Positions 12,302 to 27,492 of a stretch of 64,000 nt of DNA are shown here, in pieces. The stretch lies in NCBI RefSeq assembly GCF_003334305.1, contig NZ_QOWS01000001.1; one strand, written 5' to 3'. A program made the position numbers and the translations under genes. The DNA comes from Escherichia coli. GTDB taxonomy: Bacteria > Pseudomonadota > Gammaproteobacteria > Enterobacterales > Enterobacteriaceae. The notes under the pieces are model-generated. The model ran no database searches and was not told the DNA's origin. It was given only the letters and a program-made list of their open reading frames with translations. The stretch's first letter is position 1. Each line of letters begins with the position of its first letter.

Positions 12302-12353
12302 TCCATCCCTTCACACAACCTGGCTCTCTCTTTTTTCAGATAAGACTGCTGGG

Positions 12354-12400
12354 CGATCTGCCGACGCCAGGATATAACCATTAACAAGCGTCGGCAGATT
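12354..12400 (+). terminator. Stem-loop downstream of yfaP (possible terminator)
   Basis: Perfect 12-bp inverted repeat ATCTGCCGACGC / GCGTCGGCAGAT with ~20-nt loop, followed by T-rich TTTCTTATTTTT. Confidence 0.35.
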
Positions 12401-12575
12401 GGTCATTTCTTATTTTTCGTACTGAGAACTGTCCATCTACTCCGGCTTTCCTGGTTAAGGCAATGGTTTCTAAGCGATACGCATTATTGCAATGGTGACA
12501 GAACATTGCGGTAACACGCTTTTACCGCTACCTTAACCACACTCCATCGGTCACCTGAGGCGGAGCTTCGCCCCT

Positions 12576-15414
12576 TTGAAATACCTTGCTTCTTTTCGTA
12601 CAACCCTGAAAGCCTCGCGCTACATGTTCAGAGCATTGGCGTTAGTGCTCTGGCTGTTGATTGCTTTTTCATCCGTTTTTTACATCGTTAATGCGTTACA
12701 TCAGCGAGAATCGGAAATTCGTCAGGAATTTAATCTGAGTTCCGATCAGGCTCAGCGCTTTATTCAACGCACCTCTGATGTGATGAAAGAGCTGAAGTAC
12801 ATCGCCGAAAATCGCTTATCGGCAGAAAACGGTGTGCTTTCCCCGCGTGGACGAGAAACGCAGGCGGATGTGCCTGCGTTTGAACCGCTGTTTGCCGACT
12901 CCGATTGTTCCGCAATGAGTAACACCTGGCGAGGTTCTCTGGAGTCATTGGCGTGGTTTATGCGCTACTGGCGCGATAATTTTTCTGCGGCTTACGATCT
13001 CAACCGGGTATTTTTAATCGGCAGTGATAACCTCTGCATGGCCAATTTCGGTCTGCGTGATATGCCAGTGGAACGCGATACCGCGTTGAAAGCTTTGCAT
13101 GAACGCATCAATAAATATCGAAATGCACCACAAGATGATAGCGGCAGTAACCTCTACTGGATCAGCGAAGGTCCGCGCCCTGGCGTCGGGTATTTTTACG
13201 CGTTGACGCCAGTTTATCTGGCGAACCGGTTGCAGGCGCTTTTGGGTGTCGAGCAGACCATCCGGATGGAGAACTTTTTCTTACCGGGTACGTTGCCGAT
13301 GGGGGTTACCATTCTTGATGAAAATGGTCATACCCTGATTTCGCTTACCGGACCAGAAAGTAAAATTAAGGGCGATCCTCGCTGGATGCAGGAACGCTCC
13401 TGGTTTGGCTATACGGAAGGGTTCCGGGAGCTGGTGCTGAAGAAAAATCTGCCACCCTCATCGCTAAGCATCGTGTATTCGGTGCCGGTTGATAAGGTGC
13501 TGGAACGCATTCGCATGTTGATCCTTAACGCAATTTTGCTGAATGTGCTTGCCGGAGCTGCATTGTTTACTCTCGCACGGATGTACGAGCGACGTATTTT
13601 CATTCCGGCGGAAAGCGACGCCCTGCGACTGGAAGAACATGAGCAGTTCAATCGCAAGATTGTCGCCTCCGCGCCAGTGGGTATCTGCATTTTGCGTACC
13701 GCTGATGGCGTCAATATTTTAAGTAACGAACTGGCGCATACCTATCTCAATATGCTTACGCATGAGGACCGCCAACGACTGACGCAAATTATCTGTGGGC
13801 AGCAGGTCAATTTTGTTGATGTCCTGACCAGCAACAATACCAATCTGCAAATCAGCTTCGTCCATTCGCGCTATCGTAATGAAAACGTGGCCATTTGTGT
13901 GCTGGTGGATGTTTCTTCGCGCGTGAAGATGGAAGAGTCGTTGCAGGAGATGGCACAAGCAGCGGAACAGGCGAGCCAGTCAAAATCGATGTTCCTTGCC
14001 ACCGTCAGTCATGAGCTGCGAACGCCGCTGTATGGCATTATCGGTAACCTGGATCTGTTGCAAACCAAAGAGTTACCGAAAGGCGTCGATCGGCTGGTGA
14101 CGGCAATGAACAACTCTTCCAGCCTGTTGTTGAAAATTATCAGCGATATTCTCGATTTCTCGAAGATTGAATCGGAACAGTTGAAGATCGAACCGCGTGA
14201 GTTTTCACCGCGTGAAGTGATGAACCACATCACCGCCAACTATTTACCGCTGGTGGTACGCAAGCAGTTAGGCTTGTACTGCTTTATTGAACCGGATGTG
14301 CCAGTGGCCTTAAATGGCGACCCGATGCGTTTACAGCAGGTCATCTCCAACCTGTTGAGTAACGCCATAAAATTCACCGATACCGGCTGTATAGTTTTGC
14401 ATGTCCGCGCTGATGGCGATTATCTCTCTATCCGTGTTCGCGATACCGGCGTGGGGATTCCGGCGAAAGAAGTGGTGCGCTTGTTTGATCCCTTCTTCCA
14501 GGTCGGAACGGGCGTACAGCGAAACTTCCAGGGGACCGGTCTGGGTCTGGCGATTTGTGAAAAACTGATCAGCATGATGGACGGCGATATCTCGGTAGAT
14601 TCAGAACCGGGAATGGGCAGCCAGTTTACCGTGCGTATTCCGTTGTACGGCGCTCAGTACCCGCAGAAAAAAGGCGTGGAAGGGTTGAGTGGTAAACGCT
14701 GCTGGCTGGCGGTCCGCAATGCGTCGCTCTGTCAGTTCCTGGAAACCAGTTTGCAGCGCAGCGGCATCGTCGTTACAACATACGAAGGGCAGGAACCGAC
14801 TCCCGAAGATGTGTTAATTACTGACGAGGTAGTGAGTAAAAAATGGCAGGGTAGAGCGGTAGTGACCTTCTGTCGTCGCCATATTGGTATTCCGCTGGAG
14901 AAAGCGCCAGGGGAGTGGGTACACAGTGTGGCTGCCCCGCATGAGCTACCGGCATTGTTGGCGCGTATTTATTTGATCGAGATGGAGAGCGACGATCCTG
15001 CTAACGCTCTGCCGTCGACGGACAAAGCGGTCAGCGATAATGACGATATGATGATTCTGGTCGTGGATGATCATCCGATTAACCGACGTCTGCTGGCAGA
15101 TCAGTTGGGATCGTTGGGCTATCAATGTAAAACCGCGAATGATGGTGTCGATGCGCTTAATGTACTTAGCAAGAATCATATTGATATCGTGCTTAGCGAC
15201 GTCAACATGCCAAATATGGATGGTTACCGCTTGACGCAACGCATTCGTCAGTTGGGACTGACGTTGCCGGTAATCGGAGTAACTGCTAATGCGTTGGCTG
15301 AAGAGAAGCAGCGGTGTCTGGAGTCCGGTATGGACAGCTGCCTGTCGAAGCCGGTAACGCTGGATGTGATAAAACAGACGCTGACGGTATATGCCGAGAG
15401 GGTCAGGAAATCGC

Positions 15415-15425
<11 letters not shown>
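12576..15425 (+). CDS. rcsC: Rcs phosphorelay hybrid sensor histidine kinase RcsC
   Basis: 949-aa ORF starting MKYLASFRTTLK on a TTG codon; contains histidine-kinase H-box (SHELRTP) and C-terminal receiver domain (VVDDHPINRR...). Confidence 0.95.
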
Positions 15426-15620
<195 letters not shown>

Positions 15621-15624
15621 GTGA

Positions 15625-16275
15625 TTAGTCTTTATCTGCCGGACTTAACGTCACAGAAGAGAGATAATTCAGCAGGGCGATATCGTTCTCGACACCCAGC
15701 TTCATCATCGCAGATTTCTTCTGGCTACTGATGGTTTTAATACTGCGGTTCAGCTTTTTAGCGATCTCGGTCACCAGGAAGCCTTCCGCAAACAGGCGCA
15801 GAACTTCACTCTCTTTTGGCGAGAGACGCTTGTCACCGTAACCACCAGCACTGATTTTTTCCAACAGGCGAGAAACGCTTTCCGGGGTAAATTTCTTCCC
15901 TTTCTGCAGCGCGGCGAGAGCTTTCGGCAGATCGGTCGGTGCACCTTGTTTCAGCACGATCCCTTCGATATCCAGATCCAATACCGCACTAAGAATCGCC
16001 GGGTTGTTGTTCATGGTCAGAACAATAATCGACAGGCTTGGGAAATGGCGCTTGATGTACTTGATTAAGGTAATGCCATCGCCGTACTTATCGCCAGGCA
16101 TGGAGAGATCGGTAATCAACACATGCGCATCCAGTTTCGGCAGGTTGTTGATCAGTGCTGTAGAGTCTTCAAATTCGCCGACAACATTCACCCACTCAAT
16201 TTGCTCAAGTGATTTGCGAATACCGAACAAGACTATCGGATGGTCATCGGCAATAATTACGTTCATATTGTTCAT
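15625..16275 (-). CDS. rcsB: Rcs phosphorelay response regulator RcsB
   Basis: Start taken at MNNMNVIIADDHPIVLFGIRK within ORF 15625-16320, giving 216 aa; receiver domain plus LuxR-type C-terminus. Confidence 0.95.
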   Translation of the reverse strand: MNNMNVIIADDHPIVLFGIRKSLEQIEWVNVVGEFEDSTALINNLPKLDAHVLITDLSMPGDKYGDGITLIKYIKRHFPSLSIIVLTMNNNPAILSAVLDLDIEGIVLKQGAPTDLPKALAALQKGKKFTPESVSRLLEKISAGGYGDKRLSPKESEVLRLFAEGFLVTEIAKKLNRSIKTISSQKKSAMMKLGVENDIALLNYLSSVTLSPADKD

Positions 16276-16291
16276 GTAATAGGCTACCTTG

Positions 16292-18964
16292 CTACAGCAA
16301 GCTCTTGACATAACTGTCAATGTCGCTGATGTATTTTTCTATTCCTGGAACATCCTTCTCACGAATCAGATGTTCCAGCGTTTCACATAACTGCTTGCCG
16401 GGTACCAGATTTAGCATGGCAAATACGCCTTTAAGACGATGAGCCGTTTGGGCTAACGCAGCAAAGTCACTGGTTGCTGCTTCAGTATACAGCCTCTTAA
16501 CATCATCCGGTACTGTGTCTACAAAGAGCGCATAATAGCCGCTGGCATGGAGTTGCGCATTTTCATCTCCGCCCAGAGGCGATTCTGTCACCTCTTCCTG
16601 CGCCAGTTGCACTTCAATTAATTGTAAGACCGCTTCCTGCATAGCGTTGCTCATATTGAAGTTGACGCACAATTGACCAGGCCCAATTTCCCGTACGCCA
16701 GACTCATCATCGCTTAAAAGCAAGCCAGAGGCAGTAAGATTAGACGGATTATCCGTTAAAAAGATATCATAATCTTGACTAATTAATCTTTCATCGGGTG
16801 TGATACAGGTTGCACCCCAATTTTCTAACTGGCGAGTGACAATATTCCGAATTTCTGCCGAAGTAACATCCACCATTACGCAGACATCATCCAGTAAACG
16901 CTCTTCTTCCTCTTCAACTTCCGGGTCAGCGGCGAGCATTTTGATATGCACAGAGTAGCGTGTACCAAGCCCATCCCGCGTTTTGATGTTTAAATGACCG
17001 CCCAGTTTACGCGCCAGTTGATCGCTCAGCCAGAATGCCAGCGGGTCCGCCTTGCCATAGCGATCGTTTTGGGTCTGGTTGATAAACGGGAAGTGCAAAT
17101 TATCCATTTCATGAATACTTACGCCTTCTCCGGTGTCCAGAATGCGGAATGTCAGGCGGTCTTCAGAGGACTCATCCTGATCAACCTCAAGGGTGATTTT
17201 TCCCAATTGCGTTGAGGTCACGGCATATTGCATCAGTAGCAGCAAAATACGTCGTAAGGCATCGCGATCGCCGCGGCGCATATCGTGTGCTTTCAGATGA
17301 TTGTTAATCAGCAGTTGCAGACCTTTACGCTTGATGGCAGGCAACACTGAAGGCACAACTTCATCAATTAAATCCTGCACGGAGAACAGCACCGTCTCAC
17401 TTTTCCAGCTATCATCCGCAAGCATGTTCGCTAACTGTATTTCATCAACCAGCCGCACCAGCACATCTGCCTGATTCGCCAGTTGTTTGCTTTCCGGGGC
17501 GTTGAGTTTAGCCGCGCTCTCCGCCAGGGACTGTGCAGGTTCTTTCAGCGCATCGCCAATGTTTTTCATAAAGGTCATCCGGCCCTGCTGGTTTTTCTCA
17601 TACAGACGCTGCGCCTGCTTGAGTTTCTTGTTTACCAGCACTTCGCGATCCTGATCGCGAATAATGAAAATTTGTGTGCGCGGCGCGACCTGGCTGCGGA
17701 ACATGCGGATCTCATACAGCTCGTTATTGATCGTCGCCTGAATAATCCCCTGATGCTGTTCCGCCATGGTGGTGATGTTTTGCAGATTCAAATGCGGCAG
17801 CAAATGATCGGCAATTTTGTTACTTATGACAGTGCGGTTCGATTCCTGATCGTGAACCAGCAGGCCGAGCGGCAGCAGTGAGACTATCTCTTCATTAATT
17901 GCCCGTAAAATGCGCAATTCGTTATTGACCGCCGTGCTGGGTAGACTTTCTGTACTGCGGCTGGAGAAATGGCGGAATGTGGTATAGCCAAATAACGCCA
18001 GCGCCAGCAAACCGATGTTCAGCAGCAGTGGCAGCAGAATGTTTTGCAACGTATCCAGCAATAAGGTGCCATAAGGAACCTGCCAGACCAGGCGCATATC
18101 GGTAGAGTTGAGTGCCGAGGAGATTTCAATCTTCGTACTGTTAAAGTGGATACTGACGCTATCCGTCCCTTCTTTCTCATTATCATTGTTTCCCGTTGCC
18201 GTCGCGTCTGGCTCAAGGCGGAAACTGTCCAGCGGCATACCCGGTGGGATCAAATCATTAATCGGCAGATCAAAAGCCACGACCGTTGCCAGATGTCCTG
18301 GCTGGTTAAAGGTAGTACGCAAGGTAAAGTAATGACCGTTCTGCCAGGCCAGGCGGCGCATGTTAGAAAAGCTTTCGCGTTCATCGAGGGCGTTGGCCTG
18401 TTGCAACATCTCTGCACGACGTGAATCAACAATGTCGCTGACGGTCGATTCTTTAAATCCGGAGGTGAGATCTTTAAGGGGTAGGGTTGAGATCAGCACC
18501 AGACTGTTATCCTGACCATTCAGGTAATACATCGACCACGGTACATTTTCTGCGCCCCACAATGTATCCAGATAAGTGGACATCCGCTGAGTCATCTCAA
18601 GCGTTGAGTTGTCGTGAGAGCCAAAGATTAACGCTTCCGTTTTGCGGCGTGGTTTCTCCAGATAGTAGACATCCTGTTTCAGGCGCGTCTCTTGTAAACC
18701 TTCGCCGGAGGAGGGGGAGGTCGTCGCGGCAATGTTGTCGTAGATCTGCCAGGTCACGTAACGCCAGTTATCGACGCGCTTTTGGATAGCATGGGTAATG
18801 TCGACAATCTGGTAACTTTTATCTTTCAGCCAGGCGTTAACGGCGCTTTGTACCATTACACCCATCGTCACCAGTAACACAATGATCAACAGTAAAAAGA
18901 AGCGGGTAATGCTCCTCGGTAGGAGTGAAAAGCGGGTCGTGGCCGTTGTCTCTTTCTGACGCAT
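16292..18964 (-). CDS. rcsD: Rcs phosphotransfer protein RcsD (YojN)
   Basis: 890-aa ORF directly upstream of rcsB on the same strand with a 16-nt gap; N-terminal membrane segment and C-terminal HPt-like region. Confidence 0.95.
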   Translation of the reverse strand: MRQKETTATTRFSLLPRSITRFFLLLIIVLLVTMGVMVQSAVNAWLKDKSYQIVDITHAIQKRVDNWRYVTWQIYDNIAATTSPSSGEGLQETRLKQDVYYLEKPRRKTEALIFGSHDNSTLEMTQRMSTYLDTLWGAENVPWSMYYLNGQDNSLVLISTLPLKDLTSGFKESTVSDIVDSRRAEMLQQANALDERESFSNMRRLAWQNGHYFTLRTTFNQPGHLATVVAFDLPINDLIPPGMPLDSFRLEPDATATGNNDNEKEGTDSVSIHFNSTKIEISSALNSTDMRLVWQVPYGTLLLDTLQNILLPLLLNIGLLALALFGYTTFRHFSSRSTESLPSTAVNNELRILRAINEEIVSLLPLGLLVHDQESNRTVISNKIADHLLPHLNLQNITTMAEQHQGIIQATINNELYEIRMFRSQVAPRTQIFIIRDQDREVLVNKKLKQAQRLYEKNQQGRMTFMKNIGDALKEPAQSLAESAAKLNAPESKQLANQADVLVRLVDEIQLANMLADDSWKSETVLFSVQDLIDEVVPSVLPAIKRKGLQLLINNHLKAHDMRRGDRDALRRILLLLMQYAVTSTQLGKITLEVDQDESSEDRLTFRILDTGEGVSIHEMDNLHFPFINQTQNDRYGKADPLAFWLSDQLARKLGGHLNIKTRDGLGTRYSVHIKMLAADPEVEEEEERLLDDVCVMVDVTSAEIRNIVTRQLENWGATCITPDERLISQDYDIFLTDNPSNLTASGLLLSDDESGVREIGPGQLCVNFNMSNAMQEAVLQLIEVQLAQEEVTESPLGGDENAQLHASGYYALFVDTVPDDVKRLYTEAATSDFAALAQTAHRLKGVFAMLNLVPGKQLCETLEHLIREKDVPGIEKYISDIDSYVKSLL

Positions 18965-19275
18965 TCGTGTTTATGACCTGTTAAAACTTCGCGAAGTGAT
19001 AGGGCAGTATAAAGGGTACAGTGTGAAATTCCAGACTCTTACCTGATTGATGATTCTCTATTCTCCCGTGATATTTATCATCCTGCATTGGGGGAAATAG
19101 ATGTACAAGCGCCATTTTGCTGTACAAATAACCTACAAAAATCCCAACAAAAATAATTGCAAATAAACAAAGATTGCTGGAAATTATGCGGATGTTAATT
19201 ATTTGTGAAATAGTTAACAAGCGTTATAGTTTTTCTGTGGTAGCACAGAATAATGAAAAGTGTGTAAAGAAGGGT

Positions 19276-19368
19276 AAAAAAAACCGAATGCGAGGCATCC
19301 GGTTGAAATAGGGGTAAACAGACATTCAGAAATGAATGACGGTAATAAATAAAGTTAATGATGATAGC
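19276..19368 (-). ncRNA. micF: MicF antisense small RNA
   Basis: Reverse complement of 19276-19368 reads GCTATCATCATTAACTTTATTTATTACCGTCATTCATTTCTGAATGTCTGTTTACCCC...GGATGCCTCGCATTCGGTTTTTTTT, ending in a hairpin plus U-tract; divergent from ompC. Confidence 0.9.
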
Positions 19369-19524
19369 GGGAGTTATTCTAGTTGCGAGTGAAGGTTTTG
19401 TTTTGACATTCAGTGCTGTCAAATACTTAAGAATAAGTTATTGATTTTAACCTTGAATTATTATTGCTTGATGTTAGGTGCTTATTTCGCCATTCCGCAA
19501 TAATCTTAAAAAGTTCCCTTGCAT

Positions 19525-19564
19525 TTACATTTTGAAACATCTATAGCGATAAATGAAACATCTT
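19525..19564 (+). promoter_or_regulatory. ompC upstream OmpR-binding region
   Basis: TTTACATTTTGAAACATCTA at 19525-19544, and a second TGAAACATCT copy 21 bp downstream (19554-19564); matches OmpR box sequence as I recall it. Confidence 0.6.
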
Positions 19565-19687
19565 AAAAGTTTTAGTATCATATTCGTGTTGGATTATTCT
19601 GCATTTTTGGGGAGAATGGACTTGCCGACTGATTAATGAGGGTTAATCAGTATGCAGTGGCATAAAAAAGCAAATAAAGGCATATAA

Positions 19688-23836: not shown

Positions 23837-25480
23837 ATGGAACTTCTTGTACTTGTCTGGCGGCAGTATCGCTGGCCATTTATCAGTGTGATGGCGCTAA
23901 GCCTCGCCAGTGCGGCATTAGGCATTGGCTTAATTGCTTTTATCAATCAGCGCCTTATCGAAACGGCGGATACCAGTCTGCTGGTATTGCCGGAGTTTCT
24001 GGGATTATTGCTGCTGTTGATGGCAGTCACTCTCGGATCGCAACTGGCGCTCACCACTTTGGGGCATCACTTCGTTTACCGACTGCGTAGTGAATTTATC
24101 AAGCGGATTCTGGATACCAACGTCGAGCGCATTGAACAACTCGGTAGCGCCTCGTTGCTGGCGGGATTAACCAGCGATGTGCGCAATATCACCATTGCTT
24201 TTGTGCGTCTTCCGGAACTGGTGCAGGGGATCATTCTCACTATCGGTTCCGCGGCGTATCTGTGGATGCTGTCGGGCAAAATGTTGCTGGTAACGGCTAT
24301 CTGGATGGCGATCACCATCTGGGGTGGTTTTGTACTGGTGGCGCGGGTGTACAAACATATGGCGACCCTGCGTGAAACCGAAGACAAGCTGTACACGGAT
24401 TTTCAAACCGTACTCGAAGGGCGCAAAGAGCTGACTCTGAACCGGGAACGCGCCGAGTATGTGTTTAACAACCTCTACATCCCCGATGCGCAAGAGTATC
24501 GCCATCATATTATTCGCGCAGACACCTTCCATCTTAGCGCCGTGAACTGGTCAAACATCATGATGCTGGGCGCTATCGGCCTGGTGTTCTGGATGGCGAA
24601 CAGTCTCGGTTGGGCTGATACCAACGTTGCTGCGACCTATTCGTTGACGCTGTTATTCCTGCGTACGCCGCTGCTTTCGGCGGTTGGCGCATTGCCGACG
24701 CTGCTGACGGCGCAGGTGGCGTTTAACAAGCTGAACAAATTCGCGCTCGCGCCTTTCAAAGCTGAGTTTCCGCGCCCGCAGGCTTTTCCCAACTGGCAAA
24801 CGCTGGAGCTGCGTAACGTGACGTTTAGCTATCAGGATAACGCGTTTTCCGTTGGGCCGATTAACCTCACCATTAAACGTGGCGAGCTGCTGTTTCTGAT
24901 TGGTGGCAACGGTAGTGGAAAATCGACGCTGGCGATGTTGCTGACGGGCTTGTACCAGCCACAAAGCGGCGAAATCTTGCTGGATGGCAAACCTGTCAGT
25001 GGCGAACAACCGGAAGATTATCGCAAACTGTTTTCGGCAGTGTTTACCGATGTCTGGCTGTTTGATCAACTGCTGGGGCCGGAGGGTAAACCCGCTAACC
25101 CGCAACTGGTTGAGAAGTGGCTGGCGCAGCTGAAAATGGCTCATAAGCTTGAGTTAAGCAACGGGCGTATTGTTAACCTGAAGTTATCAAAAGGGCAGAA
25201 AAAACGCGTGGCGCTGTTGCTGGCGCTGGCAGAAGAACGCGATATTATCCTGCTGGATGAATGGGCGGCGGATCAGGATCCACACTTCCGTCGTGAGTTT
25301 TATCAGGTGTTGCTGCCGCTGATGCAGGAGATGGGTAAAACTATTTTCGCTATCAGTCATGATGATCATTACTTTATCCACGCCGACCGCCTGCTGGAAA
25401 TGCGCAATGGGCAACTTAGCGAGCTGACGGGCGAAGAGCGCGATGCCGCTTCGCGTGATGCCGTTGCCCGGACGGCATAA
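23837..25480 (+). CDS. yojI: ABC transporter YojI (fused permease/ATPase; microcin J25 efflux)
   Basis: 547-aa ORF; N-terminal transmembrane region, C-terminal Walker [10 protein letters not shown] and signature LSKGQKKR. Confidence 0.9.
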
Positions 25481-27345: not shown

Positions 27346-27478
27346 GATGTGCCACATCCGGCATGGTATGCCGGATGTGGCGTATGCTGATAAGACGCGC
27401 CAGCGTCGCATCAGGCACCGGCTCGGGCGTTAGATGTCGGATGCGGCGTGACCGCCTTATTCGGCCTACGGGGTGCCG
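27346..27478. repeat. Cluster of three REP-type palindromic units between convergent mqo and eco
   Basis: GCCACATCCGGCATGGTATGCCGGATGTGGC (perfect palindrome), then ...GATAAGACGCGCCAGCGTCGCATCAGG..., then GATGTCGGATGCGGCGTGACCGCCTTATTCGGCCTAC. Confidence 0.8.
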
Positions 27479-27492
27479 CACTTCACAGCATT

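Follow-up and report, generated by a model that had tools for sequence, protein, structure and literature searches.

The small RNA gene micF in the ompC-rcsD spacer of a non-K-12 Escherichia coli strain

The stretch of Escherichia coli DNA analyzed here (64,000 nucleotides, referred to in full as the window) contains, in the spacer between ompC and rcsD, a 93-nt segment on the minus strand that ends in a hairpin and a run of U. The question raised by this locus was whether the segment encodes a functional regulatory RNA, a small protein, or mainly a transcriptional barrier ahead of rcsD. The segment was assigned, with a probability of about 98%, to the known E. coli gene micF, transcribed away from ompC, ending at its own Rho-independent terminator, and repressing ompF in trans. 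No evidence against this identity was found in the analysis. The locus is an already known one, and on sequence grounds the copy appears to hold no novelty, being identical to the gene of the laboratory strain. Through OmpF, MicF ties the permeability of the outer membrane to signals of osmotic, oxidative, and antibiotic stress. Its description in 1984 was the first of any trans-acting regulatory RNA encoded on a chromosome (as cited in PMC5745476).

Identity of the RNA gene between ompC and rcsD

The entire 64-kb window was scanned with 4,227 Rfam families at their gathering thresholds, and MicF was the best of the five matches obtained. The MicF model (RF00033) matched positions 19276 to 19369 on the minus strand with 114.4 bits (E = 2.8e-17), 35 bits above its gathering score of 79, and the match spanned model positions 1 to 94 of 94 with a posterior probability of 1.00 throughout. 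The mature RNA begins at the second position of the Rfam model, so the 93-nt coordinates in Table 1 are exact. Read on the minus strand, the gene has the sequence GCUAUCAUCAUUAACUUUAUUUAUUACCGUCAUUCAUUUCUGAAUGUCUGUUUACCCCUAUUUCAACCGGAUGCCUCGCAUUCGGUUUUUUUU. It was identical at 93 of 93 positions to micF of K-12 MG1655 (b4439; NC_000913.3, positions 2313084 to 2313176), which is annotated as "small regulatory RNA MicF." The curated K-12 record places this noncoding RNA (ncRNA) between ompC (b2215) and rcsD (b2216) and contains no coding sequence (CDS) there. An earlier note, made from the letters of the window, had recognized a 93-nt MicF on the minus strand and had named a covariance-model search as the check; the full-length match, at 114.4 bits against a threshold of 79, and the complete identity to K-12 micF both bear that recognition out. 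Elsewhere in the ompC-rcsD spacer, no Rfam match was found at gathering thresholds, and when the spacer was scanned by itself at a low threshold, the one match apart from MicF was a fragment of tmRNA attributable to chance (9.8 bits, E = 0.12).

Table 1. Features of the ompC-micF-rcsD locus (window coordinates)
Feature	Position	Strand	Basis
micF, 93-nt small regulatory RNA	19276..19368	-	Rfam RF00033, full length; 93/93 identical to K-12 b4439
micF ends	transcription start 19368; last U 19276	-	Correspondence to K-12
MicF 5' target-binding region, about nt 1-33, unpaired	19336..19368	-	Minimum free energy (MFE) and centroid folds
MicF stem-loop 1, nt 31-46; 6-bp stem, 4-nt loop, few flanking pairs	19323..19338	-	Rfam and fold
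Rho-independent terminator; 10-bp stem (nt 65-74 with 78-87), 3-nt loop, eight U (nt 86-93)	19276..19304	-	Terminator scan and fold
ompC, outer-membrane porin C, 367 aa	19703-20806	+	NCBIfam NF007841 "porin OmpC," 771.6 bits (cutoff, 484); RefSeq annotation of identical DNA
rcsD, phosphotransferase RcsD	16292-18964	-	NCBIfam NF007907, 1566.9 bits (cutoff, 634); RefSeq annotation
Putative OmpR-binding site C1, ompC promoter	19515..19550	+	Includes first GAAACATCT (19534-19542); exact 36-nt match to published oligonucleotide
Second GAAACATCT box, C2 by position	19555..19563	+	21 bp downstream of the first
Probable micF -10 hexamer TAGAAT, -13 to -8	19376..19381	-	Read from sequence; assignment inferred
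mar/sox/rob-box-like site, -51 to -33, overlapping the micF -35 region	19401..19419	-	18/19 positions of AYNGCACNNWNNRYYAAAY

The start of micF and the ATG of ompC are separated by 334 bp and lie on opposite strands, in agreement with the divergent micF/ompC pair that had been described from the sequence, and rcsD, which has the same orientation as micF, follows 311 bp downstream of it. Against the ORF assigned to ompC, the OmpF and PhoE models scored below their cutoffs. The 93 nucleotides of micF were present in 5,375 of 5,426 complete E. coli genomes, essentially once per genome, and a 761-bp region around them was found in 5,377 of the 5,426, always on the chromosome; in about half of E. 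coli genomes, this region was only 95 to 99% identical. Among the records compared, micF was named only in the curated K-12 record. In eight complete E. coli genomes among the matches listed, RefSeq/PGAP annotation left the micF stretch without any feature, and across the wider spacer in twelve genomes among the matches listed, only rcsD and ompC were annotated, plus IS1 in three. A sequence-only reading or a covariance-model scan thus adds annotation that is missing from standard records.

The gene might be micF by descent and yet a silent or nonfunctional relic in the source strain, as rearrangements near the locus in other E. coli genomes (for example, the IS1 insertions carried by strains 5444, EC-07, and 4848 in the ompC leader) could suggest. 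The comparison with K-12, in which a functional micF is expressed, speaks against this. From the ompC control region through the sequence upstream of micF to the gene itself, every base matched K-12, and this stretch takes in the OmpR sites, the mar-box-like element, and the -10 element. Across the 738-bp ompC-rcsD spacer, a single base difference was found (window position 19142), with no insertion or deletion, and it lies 134 bp beyond the micF terminator, between the terminator and rcsD. A relic is therefore considered very improbable, and the window holds a normal E. coli ompC-micF-rcsD locus. Expression of MicF in the source strain, its requirement for Hfq, and its activation by OmpR, SoxS, and MarA would be expected by inference from the literature. 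For the K-12 RNA of identical sequence, expression, Hfq binding, and repression of OmpF synthesis are established (PMC5745476, PMC5175337). At position 19142, the window has T on the plus strand (A in the micF sense), and K-12 has C in the micF sense.

Secondary structure and conservation among enterobacteria

The predicted fold of MicF leaves nt 1 to 25 unpaired at the 5' end and continues with an internal hairpin, a 10-bp terminator hairpin, and a U tail. Its free energy was -18.5 kcal/mol, compared to -7.2 ± 2.0 kcal/mol for dinucleotide shuffles (z = -5.6), and none of 200 shuffles was as stable. A consensus terminator scan independently placed a 10-pair stem with five G-C pairs and a loop of 3 at 19304 to 19282 on the minus strand, followed by the T run. 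The terminator hairpin and U-tract noted earlier at the 3' end were thus recovered by scan and fold alike, as a stem with eight U.

Homologues were collected with an exact pattern comprising the 5' 28 nt of MicF, with three positions left free, in one genome per species. The search yielded at least 120 loci, and those listed include loci from Escherichia, Salmonella, Citrobacter, Enterobacter, Klebsiella, Raoultella, Kosakonia, Cedecea, Atlantibacter, Buttiauxella, and other genera. The alignment contained 101 distinct sequences from other enterobacterial species, among the matches listed; conservation of nt 1 to 28 in it is a product of the search pattern and is not independent evidence. Nucleotides 29 to 35, which the pattern left free, were nearly invariant in the 101 homologues. 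Across these sequences, 98.2% of structure cells were paired, compared to 20 to 38% when partners were slid by one to three columns. Changes on both sides were found in seven pairs, six of which are among the ten pairs of the terminator; one covarying pair was G-C in 50 sequences, A-U in 32, and G-U in 19. In stem-loop 1, 99.7% of cells were paired and five of the six pairs were invariant. Because this stem is almost invariant, covariation neither supports nor refutes it, and the covariation support for stem-loop 1 is best regarded as weak.

The gene order was conserved as well. Among the matches listed, a divergent OmpC-like gene was found upstream in 102 of 102 loci with enough flanking sequence, and rcsD was found downstream on the same strand in 88 of 88.

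The same alignment bears on the possibility that the product of the segment is a small protein and not an RNA. Two ORFs in the six-frame list overlap micF, one on the minus strand (19195 to 19422; 75 aa) and one on the plus strand (19174 to 19311; 45 aa), but both begin with TTG. Both between the hairpins and within them, the alignment is interrupted by gaps one or two columns wide (columns 54, 56 to 57, 64 to 65, and 80 to 81). These shift any frame and so rule out a conserved reading frame, and the substitutions in the 3' half are compensatory pairs that keep the helices, with no codon-position pattern. Frame-shifting gaps and compensatory pairs together effectively refute a coding reading of these ORFs. 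With the RNA-family score also well over its curated threshold and an ncRNA rather than a CDS in the curated K-12 record, a protein-coding segment is scarcely credible.

Complementarity to ompF mRNA and the control region shared with ompC

In the literature, MicF is a 93-nt transcript running divergently from ompC; by annealing to ompF mRNA over its ribosome-binding site and start codon, it prevents translation initiation (PMC5745476). Deletion of micF abolishes posttranscriptional repression of ompF upon overproduction of OmpR (PMC5175337). The ompF gene of the source strain lies outside the window, and the K-12 ompF leader was used as a stand-in. In the decisive duplex prediction, the unpaired 5' 33 nt of MicF were run against ompF positions -60 to +30. 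MicF nt 1 to 33 formed 25 bp with K-12 ompF mRNA positions -16 to +10, a stretch that includes the GAGG Shine-Dalgarno sequence and the AUG, at -27.1 kcal/mol. The average for 1,000 shuffles was -12.35 ± 2.77 kcal/mol, and none of the 1,000 reached the observed energy. The computed pairing agrees with the published account of MicF (PMC5745476) and with the micF-deletion genetics (PMC5175337), and the complementarity to the K-12 ompF translation start region fits the function that had been assigned to the RNA, that of an antisense regulator of ompF. A duplex of all 93 nt with a 180-nt ompF region was also computed (-40.1 kcal/mol; matched by 22 of 200 shuffles) and was uninformative because long inputs permit huge interior loops.

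Within the window, the 5' 33 nt of MicF were predicted to pair slightly better with positions ~25348 to 25380 on the minus strand (-29.0 kcal/mol) than with ompF. This stretch was the best of 2,842 tiles, aside from the antisense of micF itself. It is antisense to the yojI coding sequence (23837 to 25480, plus strand), and no known mRNA carries it; the pairing is most likely due to chance.

The hairpin and U-tract could also be viewed mainly as an insulator or attenuator ahead of rcsD, with the RNA incidental. The presence of rcsD on the same strand downstream, in 88 of 88 loci among the matches listed, is compatible with such a role, and some read-through is conceivable. This view nevertheless leaves unexplained both the near-invariance of the 5' end beyond the bases fixed by the search pattern and the 25-bp complementarity to ompF that no shuffle reached, and genetics show that MicF acts on ompF (PMC5175337). 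As an account of what the segment is, it is assigned next to no probability; insulation would at most be an additional role of micF and not a rival identity.

Under the preferred assignment to micF, leftward transcription, directed away from ompC, would yield a 93-nt RNA that ends at its own Rho-independent terminator. The single-stranded 5' end of this RNA (about nt 1 to 33) would pair in trans with ompF mRNA, encoded elsewhere on the chromosome, and by covering the Shine-Dalgarno sequence and start codon would block ribosome binding and reduce synthesis of OmpF. The 334-bp control region would be shared by micF and ompC, such that OmpR bound at sites C1 to C3 would raise transcription of both at high osmolarity, with OmpC increasing and OmpF decreasing. 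Regulators of the response to antibiotic and oxidative stress may act likewise through the mar/sox/rob-type box over the micF -35 region.

Several sequence elements in the control region are consistent with this arrangement. The motif GAAACATCT occurred exactly twice near ompC, at 19534 to 19542 and 19555 to 19563 on the plus strand, 21 bp (two helical turns) apart, and three times in the whole window, compared to 0.53 copies expected by chance. Both exact boxes were present in 30 of 113 homologous loci among the matches listed, with a spacing of 21 bp in all 30. Each of these two boxes is presumably the half-site nearer the promoter, the first in C1 and the second in C2, the latter named by its position. 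A third OmpR site, C3, which we take to lie at about 19564 to 19583, would fall just beyond the range 19525 to 19564. The presumed hexamers of the ompC promoter, TTGGAT (19589 to 19594) and GAGAAT (19612 to 19617), are present in the sequence, 17 bp apart. The 36 nucleotides at 19515 to 19550 are exactly those of an oligonucleotide used in published work for C1, an OmpR site of the ompC promoter (PMC2586830). The earlier note had placed tandem OmpR-type boxes within 19525 to 19564, and the two copies of GAAACATCT found there are tied to a published site through this match (PMC2586830). Compared with the known arrangement of C1 to C3, no difference was detected, C2 and C3 being named by position.

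At the position of the probable micF -10 element, TAAAAT or TAGAAT was found in 92 of 113 homologous loci, and in most of the others, the hexamer was shifted by one base. A generic sigma-70 promoter scan called neither the micF nor the ompC promoter. The micF promoter escaped the scan because its -35 region is poor, a feature that is compatible with an activator-dependent promoter but does not by itself point to one. The two plus-strand hits of that scan (19203 to 19230 and 19553 to 19581) compare with 2.9 expected from shuffles and were left uninterpreted. The mar-box consensus AYNGCACNNWNNRYYAAAY had four matches in the window, compared to 1.45 expected, and the match at 19401 to 19419 is not significant alone. 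Because the match count alone is weak, the call of a mar-box-like site there rests on position and conservation; the distance of the GCAC...AAAA core is unchanged in most homologous loci among the matches listed. MicF is reported to be activated in response to high osmolarity through EnvZ-OmpR, to oxidative stress through SoxS, and to antibiotic stress through MarA, and to be repressed through H-NS (PMC5745476).

Relative to K-12 micF (b4439) and RF00033, the locus has the same 93 nt, control region, position between ompC and rcsD, two-hairpin structure, and complementarity to ompF. No difference was found inside the gene, and the host is another E. coli strain with a different OmpC allele. 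A parallel can be drawn with the micC-ompN pair of E. coli, in which an Hfq-dependent small RNA is likewise encoded divergently from one porin gene and, by pairing near the ribosome-binding site, represses translation of another porin (PMC5745476). Unlike MicF, MicC is 109 nt long, has its own Rfam family and a different locus, targets ompC, and is regulated by OmpR in the opposite direction. No MicC match was found in the Rfam scan of the 64-kb window.

Strain background and other features of the window

The window corresponds to the reverse complement of K-12 positions ~2,268,000 to 2,333,000 and is 98.5 to 98.8% identical to it, which identifies the source as a non-K-12 E. coli strain. Nucleotide identity to K-12 was 94.4% for the ompC allele, 99.4% for rcsD, and 99.9% for the spacer. 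Of 371 aligned OmpC residues, 356 were identical to those of K-12, and there were two 4-residue indels that look like they sit in surface loops. The single base difference in the spacer, set against the 94.4% identity of ompC and the ~98.7% identity of the window, raised the idea that the spacer has another functional element, so far unannotated, in addition to micF and the known sites for protein binding; the 311 bp before rcsD would be one place for it. This is very improbable; the low divergence would be explained more simply by a shared recent haplotype, as rcsD is also close to its K-12 counterpart and about half of E. coli genomes are only 95 to 99% identical over this region.

Several differences in gene content from K-12 were observed. 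The atoS-atoC-atoDAEB genes (~7.4 kb; K-12 positions 2319952 to 2327366) are absent, and the yfaP and rcsC sides are connected by ~200 bp at window positions 12302 to 12500; the absence probably reflects ordinary variation in gene content between strains. At ~41593 to 41596, the window lacks the IS5K element that splits yejO, a pseudogene in K-12 (the alignment jumps from K-12 position 2290114 to 2288918), so yejO is uninterrupted at that site. Colinearity with K-12 also breaks between eco and mqo (~27387 to 27489), where ~460 bp of K-12 (2304500 to 2304962) have no counterpart and two alignment pieces overlap by ~100 bp, which suggests a repeat-mediated length difference.

The remaining RNA features of the window lie away from micF. 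Two Rfam matches to naRNA4 (CssrE, of the REP-element type) on the plus strand, at 15425 to 15501 (62.9 bits) and 15539 to 15615 (76.0 bits; gathering score, 59.5), lie in the convergent gap between rcsC (12576 to 15425, plus strand) and rcsB (about 15625 to 16275, minus strand). A tRNA-Pro(GGG) at 44225 to 44301 on the minus strand is the counterpart of K-12 proL, and an L25 ribosomal-protein leader was matched upstream of rplY at 48017 to 48042 on the minus strand (46.9 bits; gathering score, 34.1). Among the genomes listed, strains 5444, EC-07, and 4848 carried IS1 between the promoter region and the start codon of ompC, and altered expression of ompC would be expected in these strains. In strain 5444 (NZ_CP103515.1), micF was intact, and the position of IS1 corresponded to ~19640 to 19650 of the window.
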